Positions 4,376-58,044 of a stretch of 64,000 nucleotides of DNA are shown one piece after another; position 1 is the first letter of the stretch; the number at the start of each line of letters is the position of its first letter. A program made the position numbers and the translations under genes. Origin of the DNA: a phage; the sequence record PX441839.1; one strand, given 5' to 3'. The notes under the pieces are model-generated. The model searched no databases. It was not told the DNA's origin and was given only the letters and a program-made list of their open reading frames with translations.

Positions 4376-4648
4376 ATGAAAAGTAAACTGTCAAGAGAAG
4401 AAATTAGTCAAGTGTTATCTTTCAACATGCAAGACTGGAAAGAAAACGCCGACATTTGCGAAGCTCAAGATCTTAACGAAGAATTAACAATTGACGAAAT
4501 AAGCATTGTGTGCTCACCTGATTTTTATGATGAGTTGCACGAAAAAGATGATCTTTTTAACGTCCTGGAGAATAATTTCATGGATACCGATTTATGTGTG
4601 TACAGTATCGATACTTTTATTCTTATCCATAACATATACAACAACTAA
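4376..4648 (+). CDS. hypothetical acidic early protein (90 aa)
   Basis: ORF with promoter and RBS. Confidence 0.5.
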   Translation: MKSKLSREEISQVLSFNMQDWKENADICEAQDLNEELTIDEISIVCSPDFYDELHEKDDLFNVLENNFMDTDLCVYSIDTFILIHNIYNN

Positions 4649-4664: not shown

Positions 4665-4955
4665 ATGTTTGAAGTATTCGCCGGAATGTGTTTTTATGGT
4701 GCTATGGCATTGCGTCAATGTGAAGATTACACCGTTGAAGTGTATCATGATCCCTTATCTTGCGAGATCGTGGCGCAAGATTACCGACAGGATAAACGCT
4801 GGCTTAATCCTCAGTGTATCCCATCGCCGGAGGTTGAACCAATGCCAGAAGGTGAAGCCCTGGAAGGTGAGGAGATCCGCGCCGTTGTTAGCTATATGCT
4901 AGATAACTTAAACGCCGATCAGCTTGTTTCTATGTATGCAGAAACAGAAAAATAA
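4665..4955 (+). CDS. hypothetical early protein (96 aa)
   Basis: ATG at 4665 after AAAGGAAAGGG RBS, in frame with listed ORF 4506..4955. Confidence 0.45.
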   Translation: MFEVFAGMCFYGAMALRQCEDYTVEVYHDPLSCEIVAQDYRQDKRWLNPQCIPSPEVEPMPEGEALEGEEIRAVVSYMLDNLNADQLVSMYAETEK

Positions 4956-6133: not shown

Positions 6134-6376
6134 ATGAAAGTTCAAAATGTATTGATTTGTGAAGATTGCGCCTTGTACCTTAATACAGGTGAGCTTCCCG
6201 CTGATACCACACCAGAAGATGATCAGGACATCATCCACGGGGCGGAATATCTAGATATAACTTACAAATTTGGGAGTGTAGGCACTAGTTTAGGCTTTTC
6301 AATAAAACCGTGTGAATGTTGCGGATCTCGCCTGGCCGGAGATCGCTATGAATATGATAATCTTGGCTTAAAATAG
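6134..6376 (+). CDS. small zinc-ribbon protein (80 aa)
   Basis: CEDC ... CECCG Cys pairs; GGAGA RBS. Confidence 0.5.
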   Translation: MKVQNVLICEDCALYLNTGELPADTTPEDDQDIIHGAEYLDITYKFGSVGTSLGFSIKPCECCGSRLAGDRYEYDNLGLK

Positions 6377-51477: not shown

Positions 51478-51692
51478 GGAAGTTTCAGTATATTTTGACC
51501 ATTGATCTGGATGATGAGGCTTTGAATGCGCTCGAGGAGTGGAAGCTGTTCCGAACGGCACATGGATTATCAGGCGATGGTATTGAAGAGTTTGCCAAGA
51601 AATTTATTCCCAGTGGAATTGAAGAACGTATTAAGGAAGACCTTCTTGGAAATACAACCCACCGAGTAACTTACGCAGGAGAACTGAAATGA
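51474..51692 (+). CDS. hypothetical protein (72 aa)
   Basis: Start overlaps the upstream stop. Confidence 0.5.
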   Translation: MRKFQYILTIDLDDEALNALEEWKLFRTAHGLSGDGIEEFAKKFIPSGIEERIKEDLLGNTTHRVTYAGELK

Positions 51693-51910
51693 TCCGTAAG
51701 CATAAAGTTTTAGTCACATTGAGTGTTGACTATGGGGACCCTACTATTAAGGCACTTGTGGATGAACGCATCTCTCAAGAGGGGATAACTGTTGAAGACA
51801 TTCACAATGATGCCAAGGAAGTCCTTATTGAAGCTGTTGAAGAAATGATTAAGGACGGTGTTGACGAAAACTGCGACGGACTTAAGTTTGAGTACGAGGT
51901 TGTGGAATGA
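51689..51910 (+). CDS. hypothetical protein (73 aa)
   Basis: Start overlaps the upstream stop. Confidence 0.5.
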   Translation: MIRKHKVLVTLSVDYGDPTIKALVDERISQEGITVEDIHNDAKEVLIEAVEEMIKDGVDENCDGLKFEYEVVE

Positions 51911-51937
51911 AAGACGAATTTGATGGTTTTGTAGGTT

Positions 51938-52138
51938 TTGGTGAAGGAATCAGTTATGCGGAGGATGTGGATATTTTTGATGAGCACCCTGATTTCTGAA
52001 AGAGATCATCCAAATGCGGATGAGGATAGAACTTGCTATTTCTGCGGTCATAGTTTCAAAGGTCCTTTCAGAAGCGTTATGTGCTGGAAGTGCCTAAATA
52101 AAAAGAAACCTATTGACAATGGAAACATAAGCGAGTAA
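51938..52138 (+). CDS. small Cys-containing protein (66 aa)
   Basis: CYFCGH ... CWKC. Confidence 0.4.
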   Translation: MVKESVMRRMWIFLMSTLISERDHPNADEDRTCYFCGHSFKGPFRSVMCWKCLNKKKPIDNGNISE

Positions 52139-52173
52139 TCTTAATACATAGCCCGTAAGGAATTGCGGGATTG

Positions 52174-52249
52174 CCGATTTAGCTCAGTTGGTAGAGCGCT
52201 TCACTTGTAATGATGATGTCGCAGGTTCGAGTCCTGCAATCGGCACCAG
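52174..52249 (+). tRNA. tRNA-Thr (anticodon UGU)
   Basis: Manual cloverleaf: acceptor gccgatt/aatcggc, D-arm gctc-agttggta-gagc, T-arm gcagg-ttcgagt-cctgc, CCA encoded; one U-U mismatch in the anticodon stem. Confidence 0.7.
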
Positions 52250-52254
52250 ATAAG

Positions 52255-52328
52255 GCCCAATAGCTCACTGGTGAGAGCCAACCCCTCATAAGGGTTAGGG
52301 CGGGGATCGTAACCCCGGTGGGCCACCA
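52255..52328 (+). tRNA. tRNA-Met (anticodon CAU; initiator, elongator or Ile-lysidine not distinguished)
   Basis: Acceptor ggcccaa/gtgggcc, anticodon arm aaccc-ctcataa-gggtt, CCA encoded. Confidence 0.75.
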
Positions 52329-52347
52329 ACCAAAGAGAGAATTTAGC

Positions 52348-52426
52348 GCGGGTGTATCTCATCCGTCTTCTAAACGGACGTTAACCGAGTAATTGGAGTA
52401 TGGGGGTTCGAATCCCTCCACCCGCG
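52348..52426 (+). tRNA. atypical tRNA-like gene with anticodon-type hairpin UCU (Arg?)
   Basis: Canonical T-arm ggggg-ttcgaat-ccctc and acceptor gcgggtg/cacccgc, but no D-arm, a 23-nt extra segment, no CCA, and the acceptor extends to a perfect 16-bp stem (52339-52354 / 52419-52434). Confidence 0.4.
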
Positions 52427-52450
52427 CTAAATTCTTTTGAGGTGTAAAAA

Positions 52451-52966
52451 TTGCTAAACTTGAAAAATCAAAATATAGATAAAGGCACGGGATATTTATA
52501 CGTGTACGATCCAAGTCACCCAATGGCAAATAAGTCTGGAAAGGTTTATGTTCACAGGTATGTTGCAGAGACGGGGTTTGGTATAAAACTAACACCTGAC
52601 CTGATAGTTCACCACAAGGATGAGAATAAGCTAAACAACGAGCTAACAAATCTCGAAGTTATGACTTATTCTGAACATGCCCGTCACCACCACGGGGCGG
52701 ATTTTGTAGAATGTGTATGCAAGACCTGTGGCAATGTAACTTTGAGGAGGCCCTCGGAAGTTGTATCATTTTGTTCACACAAGTGCTCAACAACATTCAG
52801 AAGGAAATTTGAAATCTCTCCTCAAGAGTTGCAGGATTTGGTTTGTAACTACCCAGTTAGTGTTATTGCAAAGATGTTTGGGGTTAGTGATACAGCAATA
52901 CACAAGAAATGTAAAACCCTAGGGATTAAAAAGATGCCGAAAGGATTCTTTTTAAGACTCCCTTGA
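52451..52966 (+). CDS. HNH homing endonuclease
   Basis: YVHRYVAE ... IVHHKDENKLNNELTNLEVMTYSEHARHH is a classic HNH motif; C-terminal Cys cluster and HTH-like region. Confidence 0.7.
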   Translation: MLNLKNQNIDKGTGYLYVYDPSHPMANKSGKVYVHRYVAETGFGIKLTPDLIVHHKDENKLNNELTNLEVMTYSEHARHHHGADFVECVCKTCGNVTLRRPSEVVSFCSHKCSTTFRRKFEISPQELQDLVCNYPVSVIAKMFGVSDTAIHKKCKTLGIKKMPKGFFLRLP

Positions 52967-52998
52967 CATAGGTAATTGATCCTGATAAGATAATTACA

Positions 52999-53397
52999 TT
53001 GTTTCATTTCGGGATCGACAATATGGCAAAAGCTGAGATCGTAACCCGTAAGCGTGGACGGCCTTCGAAAGAAGAAAGCACAGCCATTGCTACTGAAAAG
53101 GCAATTCTTGAATATCGCCTTAAAGTGGCGATGTTATTACCTACCGCTGTTGATACCCTTAAAGGTCTGTTAACGTCAGGCTCTGAAAAAGTTAAAGAGG
53201 GTACTGCAAAATTCCTGATCAATGAGGCTAAAGAGGTGTTTAACATCTACGTCGCAGAAGATAATCAGGACAGTGAAGCAGGTGGTACAGTATCTGCAAA
53301 CTCACAGACCCACGCTGGATCGTCTGATGAGATTAAAAACATTATGCCTCTTACTACGGAAATCCGTGAGTACAAGATGGCAGAAGGTGAAGATTAA
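52999..53397 (+). CDS. hypothetical protein with AT-hook-like RKRGRPSK (about 125-132 aa)
   Basis: Six-frame ORF; terminator follows. Confidence 0.45.
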   Translation: MFHFGIDNMAKAEIVTRKRGRPSKEESTAIATEKAILEYRLKVAMLLPTAVDTLKGLLTSGSEKVKEGTAKFLINEAKEVFNIYVAEDNQDSEAGGTVSANSQTHAGSSDEIKNIMPLTTEIREYKMAEGED

Positions 53398-53428
53398 GAC
53401 CCTTCGGGGTCTTTGAGTTTTCTTTTGA
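53398..53428 (+). terminator. rho-independent terminator
   Basis: gaccc-ttcg-gggtc followed by tttgagttttctttt. Confidence 0.5.
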
Positions 53429-53457
53429 CGATTATTTTCGTACAAAAGAGAATTTAA

Positions 53458-53544
53458 GCCAGGTTATACCGTAGGGGTAGCGGAGGAGACTGTAAATCTC
53501 TGGTCATTGCGACTCGGGTGGTTCGACGCCATCACCTGGCACCA
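53458..53544 (+). tRNA. tRNA-Tyr (anticodon GUA), type II
   Basis: Acceptor gccaggt/acctggc, anticodon arm ggaga-ctgtaaa-tctct, long variable arm, CCA encoded. Confidence 0.7.
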
Positions 53545-53549
53545 AATAT

Positions 53550-53639
53550 GGAGAGTTGGCAGAGCGGCTGAATGCACCTGACTTGAAATCAGGCGACCGT
53601 TAACTCGGTCCGTGGGTTCAAATCCTACGCTCTCCGCCA
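53550..53639 (+). tRNA. tRNA-Ser (anticodon UGA), type II
   Basis: Tracks E. coli tRNA-Ser: ggagagt-tg-gcagagcggctgaatgc ... cctga-cttgaaa-tcagg ... gtggg-ttcaaat-cctac ... gctctcc-g-cca. Confidence 0.85.
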
Positions 53640-53720
53640 AATATCGCCCCTTATATAAAAGAACACCTGCGCGGCTGGAAAAACCCACTCAACAGTTCTT
53701 GAAAAGGGGCAACAATTTAC

Positions 53721-53798
53721 GGATCATTAGCTACAATTGGTTAGAGCGGCTCACTGTTAATGAGACGGTTCGTGGTTCAAGTCCACGATGATCCGCCA
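53721..53798 (+). tRNA. tRNA-Asn (anticodon GUU)
   Basis: Acceptor ggatcat/atgatcc, anticodon loop ctgttaa, T-arm cgtgg-ttcaagt-ccacg, CCA encoded. Confidence 0.8.
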
Positions 53799-53805
53799 AA
53801 CAATA

Positions 53806-53950
53806 GAAGGGTAACTTAAAGGCGGGTGTCCTGCCACTGGCCTCCAAAACCAGTCGTAAGGGGTTAGATTCCTCACTCTTCTGCCAAGTCGGGGTGTGCG
53901 CCAAATAAGAGCGGGTTAGCAACTGTGTTGTAGATTAGTCTACCACCCCA
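53806..53950 (+). ncRNA. degenerate tRNA-like sequences / possible small stable RNAs within the tRNA cluster
   Basis: Hairpins actgg-cctccaaaa-ccagt and gtaga-ttag-tctac plus tRNA-like termini (agaaggg ... ctcttct-g-cca), but no canonical cloverleaf. Confidence 0.3.
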
Positions 53951-53960
53951 CACAATAAGA

Positions 53961-54036
53961 AGTCCTATAGTTTCAGCGGTTAAAATACTCGCCTGTCACG
54001 CGAGAGTCACGGGTTCGAATCCCGTTAGGACTGCCA
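53961..54036 (+). tRNA. tRNA-Asp (anticodon GUC)
   Basis: Acceptor agtccta/taggact, anticodon arm ctcgc-ctgtcac-gcgag, T-arm acggg-ttcgaat-cccgt, CCA encoded. Confidence 0.8.
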
Positions 54037-54043
54037 TTTCTGA

Positions 54044-54119
54044 TGGAGATTAGCTCAGTAGGTAGAGCAAGCGACCGATAATCGCTGGGTCACTGGTTCA
54101 AGTCCAGTATCTCCAACCA
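54044..54119 (+). tRNA. tRNA-Ile (anticodon GAU), with unusual C at position 33
   Basis: Acceptor tggagat/atctcca, D-arm gctc-agtaggta-gagc, anticodon arm agcga-ccgataa-tcgct, T-arm actgg-ttcaagt-ccagt, CCA encoded. Confidence 0.65.
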
Positions 54120-54124
54120 AATAC

Positions 54125-54201
54125 CTCCGTGTAGCTCAGTCTGGTAGAGCGATTGCTTTGGGAGCAATAGGTCCAACGTTCGAGTCGTTGTACGGAGACC
54201 A
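54125..54201 (+). tRNA. tRNA-Pro (anticodon UGG)
   Basis: Acceptor ctccgtg/tacggag, anticodon arm attgc-tttggga-gcaat, T-arm caacg-ttcgagt-cgttg, CCA encoded. Confidence 0.85.
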
Positions 54202-54204
54202 AAT

Positions 54205-54279
54205 TGGGGATTAGCCAAGCGGTAAGGCACGAGGCTTTGATCCTTGTATGCGGAGGTTCGAATCCTCCATCCCCAGCCA
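54205..54279 (+). tRNA. tRNA-Gln (anticodon UUG)
   Basis: Acceptor tggggat/atcccca, anticodon loop ctttgat, T-arm ggagg-ttcgaat-cctcc, CCA encoded. Confidence 0.8.
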
Positions 54280-54284
54280 AATAA

Positions 54285-54361
54285 GCGTCCTTAGTGTCAG
54301 TGGTCTAACACTCCATCCTTCCAAGTTGGAACCACGGGTTCGAATCCCGTAGGACGCTCCA
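54285..54361 (+). tRNA. tRNA-Gly (anticodon UCC)
   Basis: Acceptor gcgtcct/aggacgc, anticodon loop cttccaa, T-arm acggg-ttcgaat-cccgt, CCA encoded. Confidence 0.8.
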
Positions 54362-54489
54362 AAATTACACCTCCGGTGGTCAGGGAACTGGCAATCAGGA
54401 GGTTTTTCTTTATGTGTCCGTGGTGGTTCGGACTTTATCCCACCAGAATTCTTATAATAATAAAAAATATCTCCTCTCCTTCGCCTTAG

Positions 54490-54516
54490 GCCCTCCATTA
54501 CGGAGGGCTTTTTTAT
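54490..54516 (+). terminator. rho-independent terminator after the tRNA cluster
   Basis: gccctcc-attac-ggagggc followed by ttttttatt. Confidence 0.55.
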
Positions 54517-54560: not shown

Positions 54561-55208
54561 ATGCTTGAAATTTTAACATCCTCTGGAACAAGGCCACCAG
54601 AGGACGAGGTTCTTTTCCTTTTTGATGCAGAGATGCAAAATGAAGGAGATACCGTGATGATTGACCAAGTATCCAAGAACACCCTAGCCCAGCGCCTGGC
54701 GACTTACGCTGGACATCCGTCATATCCCAACAGGATAGTAAACCATGCGGATTACGGAATGGTATTCTCACTTGGTGGGAACTTTTACCATTGGACTTCA
54801 AACTGGTTCAAGCCCCCTGAGAATATACCACCAGGAAAGAAACTGGTGTATCAGATTGAGTTTGCCTCCCCTGTCACAGGGTATTGTTTTGGAACAGGTG
54901 GTCACTTAACAGGGAGCACATGGTGGTTAGGCTTAGAAATTAGCAAGTCAACAACATACGGTATGACCCTAATATCCAGCAGAACATCATCTTCTGGAGC
55001 TTCTACAACCATCCCAGGAGATAACCTGATGCAGGATATCCGTGTTGAGTACATAACAAACACAACTATTCTTGCAAGAAGGGAAGGTTTTTCTGGAACG
55101 GGTGGTCCTTACACTCATGATCATAACTTTTTCACGAATATCTATATTTTTGGTGGACCACGGGATGCATCCGGTATGGGACAGCCAGAACTTTATACGG
55201 AAACCTGA
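54561..55208 (+). CDS. hypothetical protein (215 aa)
   Basis: ATG at 54561 after AGGAGG RBS; Gly/Ser/Thr-rich, no recognisable motif. Confidence 0.5.
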   Translation: MLEILTSSGTRPPEDEVLFLFDAEMQNEGDTVMIDQVSKNTLAQRLATYAGHPSYPNRIVNHADYGMVFSLGGNFYHWTSNWFKPPENIPPGKKLVYQIEFASPVTGYCFGTGGHLTGSTWWLGLEISKSTTYGMTLISSRTSSSGASTTIPGDNLMQDIRVEYITNTTILARREGFSGTGGPYTHDHNFFTNIYIFGGPRDASGMGQPELYTET

Positions 55209-55239
55209 AAAGAGTTAAAGTTTCTTTGGAGAAAAGATA

Positions 55240-55608
55240 ATGAATTACCTTTTAAAGTACAAGAAGTATATTTTCGGGGCAACATTGGCTATTTTGATAA
55301 TTCTGTCTGCGAATATGTACATCAGTTCGGTAGATAAGAAGGCCCACGCTAGAGGTTTTGAAGAGGCAAACTCTGCATGGATGGTCAAAGGAAGGCAATA
55401 CGTTGATCTCTTGGACCAGTCGTACAAAGAAAATAGAGAACTGAATTACGAATTGAACAAGGCAACCAGGCAGGATGCTAAGAAGGACCAAGATAGAAGG
55501 TCTAAGACTGCCGCCGCTCAAGTTGACCTTGCAAGAGATCCTTCTGCTAATTCCAAAACCGTCAGTGACAAGTTTGTAGATCTCTATAACGTATCTTTGG
55601 GGGAATAA
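55240..55608 (+). CDS. putative i-spanin (Rz-like inner-membrane spanin)
   Basis: N-terminal transmembrane helix then charged periplasmic domain; immediately upstream of a lipoprotein gene with overlapping start. Confidence 0.5.
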   Translation: MNYLLKYKKYIFGATLAILIILSANMYISSVDKKAHARGFEEANSAWMVKGRQYVDLLDQSYKENRELNYELNKATRQDAKKDQDRRSKTAAAQVDLARDPSANSKTVSDKFVDLYNVSLGE

Positions 55609-55928
55609 TGAAGAAGAGATTCTTAGGGGTTATCCTTGCCTCGGTAATCATAATGGGTTGCTCAAATAATAAAGAGATTCCAGATGTTCAGTTGGCAGAA
55701 ATTACAACCGAGAAATTGATAGACAAGCCCAATCCAGAGTTAATGGAGGATTTACCTCAGAAGACAAAACTGGAAAGAGGTATGAGTGAAGGAGAGGTTG
55801 GGGAAATTATCAGCAACAATAACCTTCGTGCAGGGACCATAGAATGGAAATATGAAGCACTCCAGCAGTATGTCTGCAACATATTTAAAGAACCTGTCGG
55901 AGAGGTTTGTACAAAAGGAGATAATTAA
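55608..55928 (+). CDS. putative o-spanin (Rz1-like outer-membrane lipoprotein)
   Basis: Signal peptide with lipobox IMGC. Confidence 0.5.
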   Translation: MKKRFLGVILASVIIMGCSNNKEIPDVQLAEITTEKLIDKPNPELMEDLPQKTKLERGMSEGEVGEIISNNNLRAGTIEWKYEALQQYVCNIFKEPVGEVCTKGDN

Positions 55929-56452
55929 TGCTTGAGATGATGATTGCAAAAGGGGGTGAAAAATCATCAGGTTCTCCTATGGACTATGCTCAGTTTTTAA
56001 ATTGGTTGCAGAATAACAATATAAGGGCTGTTACAGCAAGAAGATCCTCAGAGGAGAGAGTTCTCCCTATACAGGAAGCCCTTGAATTCACATACTCAGC
56101 AGGTACATTCATAGAGAGCGGAACCATGTGGGGAAGCCCCTACTCCACTAGGGTGACGTATGACTCAATGTGGCAGTATGTGGCGCGACACTGTTTTCCA
56201 AACTTATCTTTATATGAAAGAGAGCGGCAGGTAAACAGGCTGGTTCTTCTTAAGAAAACAGCCACGGTCAATTATCCAGACTATATATCGGTAAACCGGA
56301 ACGGTTTTCAGAGTGCCAGTTATGGCAATTACCTTGGATTTTTCGTTACACATTTTGTTTATTATGATGAATCGTCTAAACTGATGAGGGTAGTAAAACC
56401 ATCTCAAGGTTATATTGGGAGTGGTGCCCTTTTTACAGGCGAGTTCGACTAA
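55928..56452 (+). CDS. hypothetical protein (174 aa)
   Basis: Six-frame ORF; a terminase small subunit by position is possible but unsupported by motifs. Confidence 0.45.
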   Translation: MLEMMIAKGGEKSSGSPMDYAQFLNWLQNNNIRAVTARRSSEERVLPIQEALEFTYSAGTFIESGTMWGSPYSTRVTYDSMWQYVARHCFPNLSLYERERQVNRLVLLKKTATVNYPDYISVNRNGFQSASYGNYLGFFVTHFVYYDESSKLMRVVKPSQGYIGSGALFTGEFD

Positions 56453-56559: not shown

Positions 56560-58044
56560 ATGTCAGCTACTTTCGCACCTGCGAGCCGTAAGCAGCAAAT
56601 GGTTCTCGAATCTCAGGCACAGATCATGGTCATTGGTGGCGCAGCAGGTTCAGGTAAATCATACCTGCTCCAGCTTATGCCTCTCTTGATCGTAGACGAC
56701 CCCAGAACAGCATGTATCATGTTCCGTCGAACTGTCCCGCAGATTCGAGGACAAGGTGGTCTATTTGATAAGGCGAAGGATATTTACAATCAACTTCCTC
56801 CGCAAATCAAGCCAAAATTTAAAGAGAATGAGATGACTGCCACATTCCCTAACGGAGCTACCGTTAAGTGGCAATCCATGCAGCACGTTTCCGACAAATT
56901 CAACATTCAGGGTCTTGAATTTACATTTATAGGTGTAGATGAAGGAACCCAATTCGAATGGGAACAGTTGGAATACATGATGTCTCGTTTACGTTCCAAC
57001 TCGAAATACCCTTCTCGTATGGTTATTTCTTGTAACCCCGATCCTGACCACCATCTTCGTCAGATGGTTGATTGGTATCTTGATGAAGATGGCTATCCTA
57101 TTCCAGAACGAGATGGTGTTCTACGGTATTTTGTCCGTGTAGAAGATAACTACATGTGGGGTGATTCGGTCGAAGAACTGAAAGCCAGATTTGGAAGAAG
57201 ATGTAGACCTGTATCATTTACATTTATATCTTCCACGATCAAAGACAACCCACCGATGATGATCAACAACCCTGAGTATTTGGCACAGTTGGAAGGTCTT
57301 AATGACGTTGACCGTGCTAGACTTCTTCACGGCAACTGGGATGCTCGTCCAGAAGGTGCAAACTACTTTAAGAGATCTTATCTGACAGAGGTTGATGTTC
57401 TACCTATAGGATGTACAAAGGTTAGGTCTTACGATAAGGCGGGTACTGAAAGATCTACGGGTAATAAAACACCTGACTTTACAGCAGGTATTGGTGTAGC
57501 TCGTGATCAGGATGGTTTTTACTACCTTTACGGTAACTACCATGATGAGTTTATAGATGATGGTGAGTGGTCAACGATGACTATGGGCCGATTCTGTAAA
57601 AAGGTTGGAAAAAGAGACACTATCATTAAGAAACAGGCTCATATGGATGGAGATGACACGATCATTATCTTCTCCGTTGACCCTGGACAAGCAGGTTTGT
57701 CAGAATTCATGACTTCTTCAAGAGATCTTATCTCTGAGGGATTCATTGTAGAGAAAGACCCTACACCGGGCAACAAGTCAAAATTGACTCGTTTCTCACC
57801 ATTCGCCCAGCTTGCAGAGAACGGATTTGTAAGGATCGTCAAGAAGTCTTTTCCTATTGACACTTACAATGCCCTAATGAAAGAGTTGGAGCAATTTGAC
57901 GGACAGCGTTCATCCGGTACAAAAAAGGATGACTGGGCAGATGCCGTAGCCTCTGGGATAAACTACCTAGAAAAGCACGACATTGTCAGAGCCGTTGCAA
58001 TCCCCCGTCCTAATGCACCAACCATGTATTCGAGACGAAGATAA
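56560..58044 (+). CDS. terminase large subunit
   Basis: 494 aa; Walker A VIGGAAGSGKS near the N-terminus; position ahead of portal and capsid genes. Confidence 0.75.
   Translation: MSATFAPASRKQQMVLESQAQIMVIGGAAGSGKSYLLQLMPLLIVDDPRTACIMFRRTVPQIRGQGGLFDKAKDIYNQLPPQIKPKFKENEMTATFPNGATVKWQSMQHVSDKFNIQGLEFTFIGVDEGTQFEWEQLEYMMSRLRSNSKYPSRMVISCNPDPDHHLRQMVDWYLDEDGYPIPERDGVLRYFVRVEDNYMWGDSVEELKARFGRRCRPVSFTFISSTIKDNPPMMINNPEYLAQLEGLNDVDRARLLHGNWDARPEGANYFKRSYLTEVDVLPIGCTKVRSYDKAGTERSTGNKTPDFTAGIGVARDQDGFYYLYGNYHDEFIDDGEWSTMTMGRFCKKVGKRDTIIKKQAHMDGDDTIIIFSVDPGQAGLSEFMTSSRDLISEGFIVEKDPTPGNKSKLTRFSPFAQLAENGFVRIVKKSFPIDTYNALMKELEQFDGQRSSGTKKDDWADAVASGINYLEKHDIVRAVAIPRPNAPTMYSRRR

Follow-up and report, generated by a model that had tools for sequence, protein, structure and literature searches.

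We analysed a stretch of 64,000 nucleotides of phage DNA (sequence record PX441839.1; hereafter the window) and focused on a predicted HNH homing endonuclease gene at 52451–52966 on the plus strand, which lies between two clusters of transfer RNA (tRNA) genes. The coordinates coincide exactly with an entry of the list of open reading frames (ORFs). The gene starts with TTG, encodes 171 amino acids, and is preceded by a ribosome-binding site, GAGGTG (52439–52444, plus strand), 6 nt before the start codon. This site directly abuts the 3′ strand of the long stem of a tRNA-Arg(UCU)-like element (52335–52438). It is kept in Salmonella phage SSBI34, and AGG/GGAG equivalents precede the homologous genes of the jumbo phage 7t3 and of loci L038, L066, and L032. 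The HNH gene is free-standing: it occupies the intergenic spacer between the end of the tRNA-like element (52438) and a promoter at 52963, with neither an intron nor an intein around it. Directly upstream from the gene, a simple sigma-70 scan detected nothing promoter-like.

The HNH protein matched the Pfam profile HNH_3 (PF13392) over all 46 profile positions with 39.6 bits (E 4e-10; the curated cut-off is 24.8 bits). It also matched the PHROG family phrog_15471, 'HNH endonuclease' (E 8e-36), and the PADLOC model 'HEase' (homing endonuclease, PDLC03672; E 4e-13), and PADLOC made no defence-system assignment besides 'homing endonuclease'. A word-seeded search of a large protein database returned five homologues, and a sequence search of the PDB gave I-HmuI as the sole match (E 0.3). 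In an alignment of nine family members (42–73% identity to the window protein), H54, H55, D57, N62, N63, N67, E75, H76, and H80 are invariant, as are the zinc ribbon cysteines C90, C93, C108, and C112 (CxxC...CxxxC) and the C-terminal helix-turn-helix (HTH). The catalytic motif of the window protein, VHH55KDENKLN62N63ELTN67LEVMTYSEH76, is alignable with the core of I-HmuI. Every invariant family position is present in the window copy, which therefore looks intact. The predicted architecture is I-HmuI-like, with an HNH_3 core (residues ∼30–80), a zinc ribbon (90–112), and a C-terminal HTH (∼124–160) for DNA binding.

The composition of the gene also appears foreign, which supports a mobile-gene reading. 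Its GC content is 0.398 versus 0.434 for the window, and AGR codons make up six of its seven Arg codons versus 21% in 20 long ORFs of the phage. Summed over nine homologues, 57 of 73 Arg codons are AGR.

The two tRNA clusters and the borders of the HNH gene

The first tRNA cluster (52173–52328, plus strand) consists of tRNA-Thr(TGT) at 52173–52248 and tRNA-Met(CAT) at 52254–52328, both called by ARAGORN (Rfam tRNA scores of 73.9 and 44.6 bits), both with an encoded CCA, and together identical to SSBI34 at 153 of 156 positions. The second cluster (53458–54361, plus strand; ARAGORN, Rfam) comprises Tyr, Ser, Asn, a Trp-like gene, Asp, Ile, Pro, Gln, and Gly; ARAGORN called eight of these and left out the Trp-like gene. 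The ORF, its Pfam and PHROG matches, and the ARAGORN positions thus bear out the initial annotation in that a free-standing HNH gene lies between two tRNA clusters. Downstream from the HNH gene comes a sigma-70-type promoter (52963–52991, plus strand; TTGACA, 17 nt, TAAGAT, with TG; 10 of 12 matches in a promoter scan) that would drive a conserved gene for a 124-amino-acid protein (53023–53397, plus strand). This gene was identified as a homologue of CR9_279 and phrog_3330 by its profile match (E 1e-25) and by synteny, and a scan of the window placed a terminator-like hairpin after it (53396–53413, plus strand). The promoter is alignable in SSBI34, CR9, PBES02, phiTE, UPEC06, Kashira, and SSE121. 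The TGA stop codon of the HNH gene falls within the −35 hexamer TTGACA, where the insertion ends on the right.

The initial annotation had proposed that the HNH gene splits the tRNA array. The only close relative of the window in the phage collection is SSBI34, a member of the Vequintavirinae, with 94% identity over 51900–54500, and the window phage is Vequintavirinae-like. The common gene order runs from NAMPT through small ORFs, the first tRNA cluster, the 124-amino-acid gene, the second tRNA cluster, and two small genes to the terminase, and it is shared with more distant relatives, namely Certrevirus CR9, PBES02, and phiTE, Serratia phage Kashira, and the E. coli phages W70 and UPEC06. These six phages have no such HNH gene, yet they carry both tRNA clusters, parted by the 124-amino-acid gene with its promoter. 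By this comparison the split is therefore ancestral and was made by the 124-amino-acid gene, not by the HNH gene, and the latter disrupts no tRNA. In the window the HNH gene fills the short spacer from the last gene of the first cluster to the −35 box.

We compared the distribution of the HNH gene with that of its conserved neighbour. A tblastn search with the HNH protein matched 41 phage records, among which SSBI34 is the only Vequintavirinae record. A tblastn search with the 124-amino-acid protein matched 108 phage records, and among these the HNH gene is present in SSBI34 only. The next-best HNH matches among phage records (54%) come from unrelated 350-kb jumbo Salmonella phages, and weaker ones come from Vibrio, Stenotrophomonas, Erwinia, Bacillus, and phiKZ-like phages. 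This sporadic, mobile-element-like distribution supports the view that the gene is mobile. The initial annotation had said as much and had named conservation at the same position in all relatives as an argument to the contrary; the gene is absent from most of them, and the comparison of related phages for its presence or absence favours mobility.

The copy in SSBI34 shows a further trait. Between the window and SSBI34 the HNH gene is 93.4% identical (versus 92.5% for the neighbour gene), and the SSBI34 copy carries a 2-bp deletion just past the catalytic core (GTAGAATGTGT to GTGGA--GTGT, at about position 4805 of locus L001). The annotated product is a protein of 119 amino acids whose core is cut off from the zinc ribbon and the HTH; beyond the deletion, the encoded sequence is still 94% identical. 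Decay of this kind is typical of homing endonuclease genes.

Occupied and empty sites could be compared directly. Three metagenomic contigs of 141 kb (L066–L068) carry an HNH copy with 73% identity to that of the window. Their neighbour gene has 92.7% protein identity to W70 and UPEC06, and their terminase 93% to UPEC06. In L066, L067, and L068 the order is element, HNH gene, tRNA-Met; in W70 and UPEC06 it is element, 7 nt, tRNA-Met. This occupied and empty pair again speaks for mobility. On the left, homology to the HNH-less relatives ends at ...TTCTTTTGA, and on the right it resumes at the −35 box; the insertion is tight and its borders are exact. Past the HNH stop codon of L066, at 4517–4545, we found TTGAAA...ATAGGTAATT...TATAAA ahead of tRNA-Met, which resembles TTGACATAGGTAATT...TAAGAT at 52963–52991 of the window; the HNH cassette may carry a copy of the promoter along.

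The tRNA-Arg(UCU)-like element and its nuclease neighbours

An atypical tRNA-like element near the HNH gene had been noticed initially, and it exists. The Rfam tRNA model scored 38.4 bits on 52348–52426 (gathering score, 29 bits), with the D arm deleted (4 nt instead of 15). ARAGORN made no call there, and neither its output nor the Rfam alignment showed a four-arm cloverleaf with a D stem-loop. Rfam holds no dedicated family for the element, which matched the generic tRNA model only. As identified from the Rfam score, covariation, and a model termed R1, this non-canonical tRNA-Arg(UCU)-like gene spans 52335–52438 on the plus strand, with its core at 52348–52426. The core is made of a 7-bp acceptor stem, U8–A9, a 3-bp helix, the anticodon arm UCCGU/CUUCUAA/ACGGA, and a canonical T arm. 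The 3-bp helix (52358–52360 with 52387–52389) encloses the anticodon arm, and the element has an invariant 12-nt linker, UAAUUGGAGUAU, and no D hairpin. In the window the element lacks an encoded CCA, and its acceptor stem is longer by 13 bp (52335–52347 with 52426–52438). Its fold has a z score of −4.6 relative to shuffles, and model R1, which was applied to already retrieved loci, gave it 105 bits.

This element had been read as a scar. It is identical at 103 of 103 positions between the window and SSBI34, whereas the flanking protein genes are ∼93% identical, and, like the Trp-like gene of the second cluster, it recurs in many unrelated phages. The jumbo phage 7t3 carries a homologous element, annotated 'tRNA-TERM', 16 nt upstream from its 54%-identical HNH gene; the unpaired motifs are identical to those of the window, and all differences in the stems are compensated. 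When IMG/VR was scanned with exact patterns that put no constraint on the stems, 46, 53, and 53 loci came out, or 60 loci altogether. With blastn, 251 GenBank phage records proved to contain the element, which in most of them has no annotation or goes by 'tRNA-OTHER'. The carriers include Felixounavirus, many Vequintavirinae (phi92 among them), KB57-like Klebsiella phages, T5-like phages, and jumbo phages. Among 185,579 genomes of bacteria and archaea that were scanned, only two contigs, both of metagenome-assembled genomes, had it, and by these searches the element is essentially phage-specific. Most of the IMG/VR and GenBank loci lack this HNH gene; W70 and UPEC06, for example, have the element and no HNH gene.

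The element also covaries as a structured RNA would. The 46 distinct sequences align without gaps, 98.8% of the cells are paired, and in 16 of the 20 pairs both partners vary. The covariation score was 0.748, as compared with 0.187 for shuffles and at most 0.15 for slid controls, and compensatory changes occur in all four helices. The acceptor stem, an anticodon arm whose 7-nt loop includes U33, and a T arm with a GUUCRA loop are present, with 98.4–98.7% of the cells paired. The 3-bp helix (CUC in columns 11–13 with GAG in columns 40–42) is paired in 46 of 46 sequences and has six compensated variants, which were recovered by a pattern that left its positions free (N). We rejected a pairing of CUC with the second GAG (columns 49–51), which is broken in five sequences. 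A divergent element in Stenotrophomonas phage SOVA965 has CGG/CCG at the 3-bp helix. The anticodon is UCU in 45 of the 46 sequences and CCU in one, both of them Arg anticodons for AGR codons. The element is thus a three-armed tRNA-like RNA that has no D hairpin and a lengthened anticodon helix (5 bp, a 1 × 8 internal loop, and 3 bp).

A phage tRNA-Arg(UCU) with a D arm, in locus L079, has the D loop AAUUGGAUA, to which the linker UAAnUGGAGUAU is similar. When the element was aligned with the canonical tRNA-Arg(UCU) or tRNA-Leu(CAA) of relatives, the similarity was confined to the T arm. The element occurs in two kinds of context: NCCA is encoded in 36 of 55 contexts, which have no extra pairing, and 12 of the 19 contexts without CCA have an acceptor stem extended by 13–17 bp, the window copy being of this latter kind. 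Two long-stem, CCA-less elements have neighbours of some interest. The ORF downstream from the one at 2634–2713 of locus L012 encodes a Ro60/TROVE-like 'RNA-binding protein' (phrog_850, E 6e-84), and the one downstream from that at 954–1033 of locus L021 encodes an RNA ligase (PF09414, E 1e-33). As a hint, the long-stem form could be a Y-RNA-like or RNA-repair-linked RNA. An identity with YrlA, the bacterial Y RNA, was rejected: RF02553 gave no match to the element at E ≤ 1, and the sole weak YrlA match of the region, at 53986–54094, overlaps canonical tRNAs.

We wondered how tightly the HNH family is linked to tRNA genes. All placeable relatives with at least 49% identity adjoin a same-strand tRNA-Arg(UCU)-type gene. 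The element lies 16–25 nt upstream from the HNH gene in the window, SSBI34, L066–L068, 7t3, L038, L032, and L078. A D-arm-bearing tRNA-Arg(tct) takes this place 12 nt upstream in L079 and L080, and L069 has a canonical tRNA-Arg(tct) at a distance of 11 nt downstream. Among more distant homologues, SOVA965 (42% identity) has its divergent element, scoring 60 bits, 4 nt downstream; the gene of Bacillus phage pW2 (36%) shares its 3′ end with an overlapping tRNA-Arg(tct); and in Erwinia phage Hallingskeid an odd 86-nt 'tRNA-Gly' stands upstream from the homologue. IMG/VR, scanned with a profile seed, yielded 29 full-length relatives, and all but one (28) lie no more than 250 nt from a tRNA or tRNA-like gene on their own strand. 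The nearest tRNA is Arg(YCU) for 10 of these 29, and for 11 of all 34 loci scanned, which add the distant L128. On this survey, the phrog_15471 family resides almost exclusively in phage tRNA clusters.

The flank of the element is used by other nucleases as well. In other phages it is occupied by genes of phrog_3118, phrog_2255 (FelixO1-like, polymorphic), phrog_15137, phrog_59 (T5-like), phrog_559 (a weak match), phrog_16726, and phrog_1271, and it is thus a hot spot for nuclease genes. A different, distantly related HNH gene was seen in the Seunavirus Salmonella phage SSE121 (locus L007, 516–1010), within the first tRNA cluster between tRNA-Ile and tRNA-Leu. Its product has 28% identity to the window protein and combines an HNH domain with a zinc ribbon, without an HTH; at its 3′ end the gene runs into tRNA-Leu, after which comes a canonical tRNA-Arg(TCT).

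A second supposed scar, a degenerate tRNA-like stretch at 53806–53950, proved real as a tRNA-like sequence; what failed was its reading as a scar. We assign 53805–53876 (plus strand) to a conserved non-canonical tRNA-Trp(CCA)-like gene on the basis of homologues annotated as tRNA-Trp and of its conservation in SSBI34. It has the acceptor stem AGAAGGG/CUCUUCU, a discriminator G followed by CCA, CCA also in the anticodon loop, and the T loop UUAGAUU; the D arm is replaced by an atypical 6-bp hairpin. ARAGORN did not call it, and its Rfam match, to tRNA-Sec, reached only 22.5 bits. The homologue in PVP-SE1 is annotated as tRNA-Trp, and that in Bacillus phage Bc431v3 as tRNA-Trp with a low score and the remark 'possible pseudogene'. 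In all, 58 records gave matches, and Bacillus and Gordonia phages have homologues. The differences between the window and PVP-SE1 in the hairpin at the D position are compensated, and 53799–53960 aligns with SSBI34 over 163 columns with no mismatch and one gap. The ∼80 nt between the Trp-like gene and tRNA-Asp (53877–53960) likewise show no mismatch and have a homologue in SSBI34 only; their fold, a weak cloverleaf-like shape in which the loops are tiny, does not surpass that of shuffled sequences (z −0.09).

The surroundings of the tRNA clusters vary among relatives. Between tRNA-Pro and tRNA-Gly, the window has tRNA-Gln(TTG) (54205–54279), and SSBI34 has an unrelated tRNA-Met(CAT) (6300–6374); this slot is 57% identical between the two, as against 98–99% for the flanking tRNAs, and the difference looks like a cassette-like swap of one tRNA gene between phages that are 94% identical. 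In phiTE most of the second cluster is replaced, and the record annotates a pseudo-ToxI antitoxin RNA there. According to the same record, NAMPT and the large terminase gene are interrupted by genes for HNH endonucleases; both are uninterrupted in the window. Past the tRNAs, 54563–56452 diverges sharply from SSBI34: a gene for a phiTE_203-like virion protein aligns at ∼37%, the two genes after it are 65–76% identical, and an ORF at 55928–56452 (174 amino acids) has no counterpart in the aligned stretch of SSBI34. Upstream, the ORF at 51689–51910 has 71% identity to SSBI34.

Interpretation of the locus

Taken together, the domains, the intact catalytic residues, the free-standing site, the presence/absence polymorphism, the borders, and the tRNA linkage suggest that the window carries a homing endonuclease gene specialised for tRNA clusters, a functional analogue of T4 SegB, and we consider this prediction likely. 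We infer the enzymatic activity, cleavage site, homing, and mode of expression as follows. The gene is probably transcribed by read-through of the tRNA operon and translated from its own ribosome-binding site (the simple promoter scan found nothing directly upstream); processing at the tRNA-like element might free its mRNA. During co-infection with an HNH-less relative, the enzyme would nick or cut in or near the conserved tRNA-Arg(UCU) or tRNA-Arg(UCU)-like gene, and recombinational repair from the HNH-bearing genome would copy the HNH gene, together with markers close to it, into the recipient. Canonical and non-canonical tRNA-Arg(UCU) genes are tightly linked to the nuclease gene in either orientation, which suggests that the recognition site lies in or next to the tRNA gene. 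As a target for homing, the ultra-conserved 48-nt core of the element, present in hundreds of phages, would be ideal.

Several observations weigh against a specialised homing gene that entered the locus recently and recognises one tRNA. A clade of eight HNH relatives lies 157–242 nt after tRNA-Cys; others adjoin Gly, His, Met, Thr, Leu, or Glu tRNAs; and two, in L109 and Vibrio phage 11895-B1, have no tRNA at all. A search with Rfam and R1 for a concealed tRNA-like element, both in the gap that separates the clade of eight from tRNA-Cys and around the genes of 11895-B1 and L109, found nothing. The HNH proteins of the window and L066 are 71–73% identical, which is within the range of the two lineages (61% for the neighbour gene, 83% for the terminase). 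The divergence of the gene thus approximates that of the genomes, and vertical descent with loss in W70 and UPEC06 therefore fits as well as a recent invasion. The recent rearrangement proposed initially thereby loses ground, since such identity between two Vequintavirinae lineages is compatible with long residence. The element of L066 is a mosaic whose 5′ two-thirds resemble the window and whose 3′ end resembles W70, as co-conversion might leave behind; because the flanking DNA of L066 and W70 is only ∼76–83% identical, this support is weak, and ordinary divergence might account for the mosaic. Finally, the persistence of 94% identity past the frameshift in SSBI34 means that the event is either recent or a sequencing error, and it could be the latter.

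A more tentative proposal, which we regard as possible but doubtful at present, is that the element represents a new, phage-specific structural class of three-armed tRNA-Arg(YCU) and, in addition, a dedicated homing site for phrog_15471 and unrelated nuclease families. If so, phages would possess a tRNA-Arg(YCU) in which a 3-bp equivalent of the D stem closes the anticodon helix and is followed by an invariant D-loop-like linker. It would exist in two forms, one CCA-ended and the other CCA-less with a stem of 20–24 bp, and tRNA and nuclease would form a travelling pair. The long-stem form, as in the window, might be no translating tRNA and serve instead as a signal for processing, as a decoy that anticodon nucleases attack, or as an RNA of the Y-RNA-like kind. 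In the literature that could be searched, which is incomplete and may hold an earlier description, we found neither a D-arm-less phage tRNA-Arg nor such a pairing of nuclease and tRNA.

The initial annotation envisaged a recent HNH invasion that split the tRNA array and damaged tRNAs, the element at 52348–52426 and the stretch at 53806–53950 being its scars. Such an invasion would agree with the sporadic occurrence of the HNH gene, with the silence of ARAGORN on both sequences, and with a regional tRNA complement that varies among relatives, one slot differing even between the window and SSBI34. We nevertheless hold it to be very improbable: the two clusters exist in HNH-less relatives, parted by the neighbour gene and its promoter; both supposed scars are as conserved between the window and SSBI34 as bona fide tRNAs; the Arg-like element occurs in the 60 IMG/VR loci and 251 GenBank records mostly without the HNH gene, W70 and UPEC06 included, with compensation in its four helices; and the Trp-like gene bears a tRNA-Trp annotation in PVP-SE1, with further homologues in phages of Bacillus and Gordonia. 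A role for the HNH gene as a domesticated or beneficial passenger, which excludes or out-recombines competitors or drives the amplification or exchange of tRNAs against tRNA-targeting defences, is compatible with a homing gene and does not exclude it. tRNA-Tyr is among the anti-defence loci whose segmental amplification SegB promotes (PMC13096335), and phage tRNAs are known counter-defence tools (PMC10264068, PMC11464382, and PMC11555353). The catalytic residues are intact and conserved across very different phages, and the tRNA content of the region is fluid, with slot swaps and differing complements. There is, however, no sign of amplification or repeats around the HNH gene in the window, and its absence from nearly all relatives and its frameshift in the closest one fit a dispensable selfish gene better. 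A beneficial role is thus unlikely.

We give slightly less credence still to a coupling of codon supply or expression, in which an AGR-rich, AT-rich HNH gene would need the adjacent tRNA-Arg(UCU), or else the transcription, processing, or stability signals of the tRNA-like structure. The Arg codon usage of the window gene (6/7 AGR) and its homologues (57/73) would suit it, as would the ribosome-binding site set against the 3′ strand of a 20-bp stem and the lack of an upstream promoter in the simple scan; processing-based control has been proposed for the expression of SegB and of F-Tfl of T5 (PMC2330249). AGR richness follows, however, from the low GC content that is typical of homing endonuclease genes; many family members adjoin other tRNAs, and a trans-acting tRNA needs no adjacency. 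Moreover, the presence of several unrelated nuclease families on the same flank points to a landing site at the DNA level. Least credible of all, to the point of near dismissal, is an HNH protein that acts with the terminase in packaging, of the HK97-like kind. HNH proteins assist terminases in some phages, and a large terminase homologue (56560–58041) lies ∼3.6 kb downstream from the HNH gene. Yet among the 108 records of the neighbour gene the HNH gene is found in SSBI34 only, where it is truncated; tRNAs and several genes separate it from the terminase; and its family is tied to tRNA clusters. We rejected packaging on this distribution, no conserved adjacency to the terminase having been found in the relatives.

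The preferred reading, a homing gene specialised for tRNA clusters, makes the HNH gene itself an ordinary selfish mobile phage gene of a known kind, as homing endonucleases in phage tRNA clusters are already known from T4 SegB and T5 F-Tfl. Less ordinary would be an HNH-type counterpart of SegB whose closer members are tied to one tRNA species, tRNA-Arg(UCU), and a flank of one tRNA-like gene that serves as a landing pad for several nuclease families. In addition, tRNA-like sequences that gene finders skip or label 'tRNA-OTHER' or 'pseudogene' are conserved non-canonical genes, the Arg-like one in at least 251 phage records. For phage annotation, overlooked tRNA-like genes can lead to a mistaken 'scar' reading. 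The locus also bears on the shuffling of tRNA repertoires among phages, which is relevant to escape from tRNA-targeting defence, and, if the element is charged and decodes, it would have a bearing on the structural biology of tRNA.

Comparison with known systems

SegB lies in the tRNA cluster of T4, recognises the tRNA T-loop motif GGTTCRANTCC, and causes preferential inheritance of its region in mixed infections (PMC2330249). Like SegB, the HNH gene is a free-standing member of a phage tRNA cluster, points in the direction of the tRNAs, and is missing from close relatives. Homologues of SegB show a statistical enrichment beside tRNAs without a preference for a tRNA isotype, and the amplification of tRNA-Tyr that SegB promotes acts against Septu (PMC13096335). 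The phrog_15471 family is likewise enriched beside tRNAs (28 of 29 within 250 nt), but its closer members, unlike SegB, always adjoin tRNA-Arg(UCU)-type genes. The two also differ in protein family: SegB is a GIY-YIG enzyme, whereas the window protein combines HNH_3, a zinc ribbon, and an HTH, and its Pfam and PHROG matches were to HNH only, with none to GIY-YIG. Cleavage and homing have been demonstrated for SegB; for the window HNH gene they are predicted.

In T5, F-TflI and F-TflII, as well as F-TflIV, are site-specific endonucleases encoded by ORFs in the tRNA cluster (cited in PMC2330249). The T5-like contig L025 has, in a similar manner, an HNH_3 gene 12 nt after the Arg-like element; its nuclease belongs to phrog_59, that of the window to phrog_15471. 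T4 MobE is a free-standing HNH protein of the 'mob' genes, and a tRNA linkage of mobE is not reported in the source compared. The gene for I-HmuI of Bacillus phage SPO1 (PDB 1U3E) lies within a group I intron, and the enzyme nicks a single strand. The window HNH gene differs in being free-standing, and its product has a CxxC...CxxxC zinc ribbon between core and HTH and ∼22% identity to I-HmuI.

For the element, the closest structural parallel considered is the metazoan mitochondrial tRNA-Ser(AGY), which has acceptor, anticodon, and T arms, lacks the D hairpin, and has an anticodon helix lengthened in compensation. Mitochondrial tRNAs without a D arm are recognised as a general class (PMC2797822 and PMC2553581). 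Like tRNA-Ser(AGY), the phage Arg-like element appears three-armed with a longer anticodon helix; unlike it, the element has a canonical T arm and an invariant 12-nt linker, and it belongs to phages of bacteria, not to organelles.

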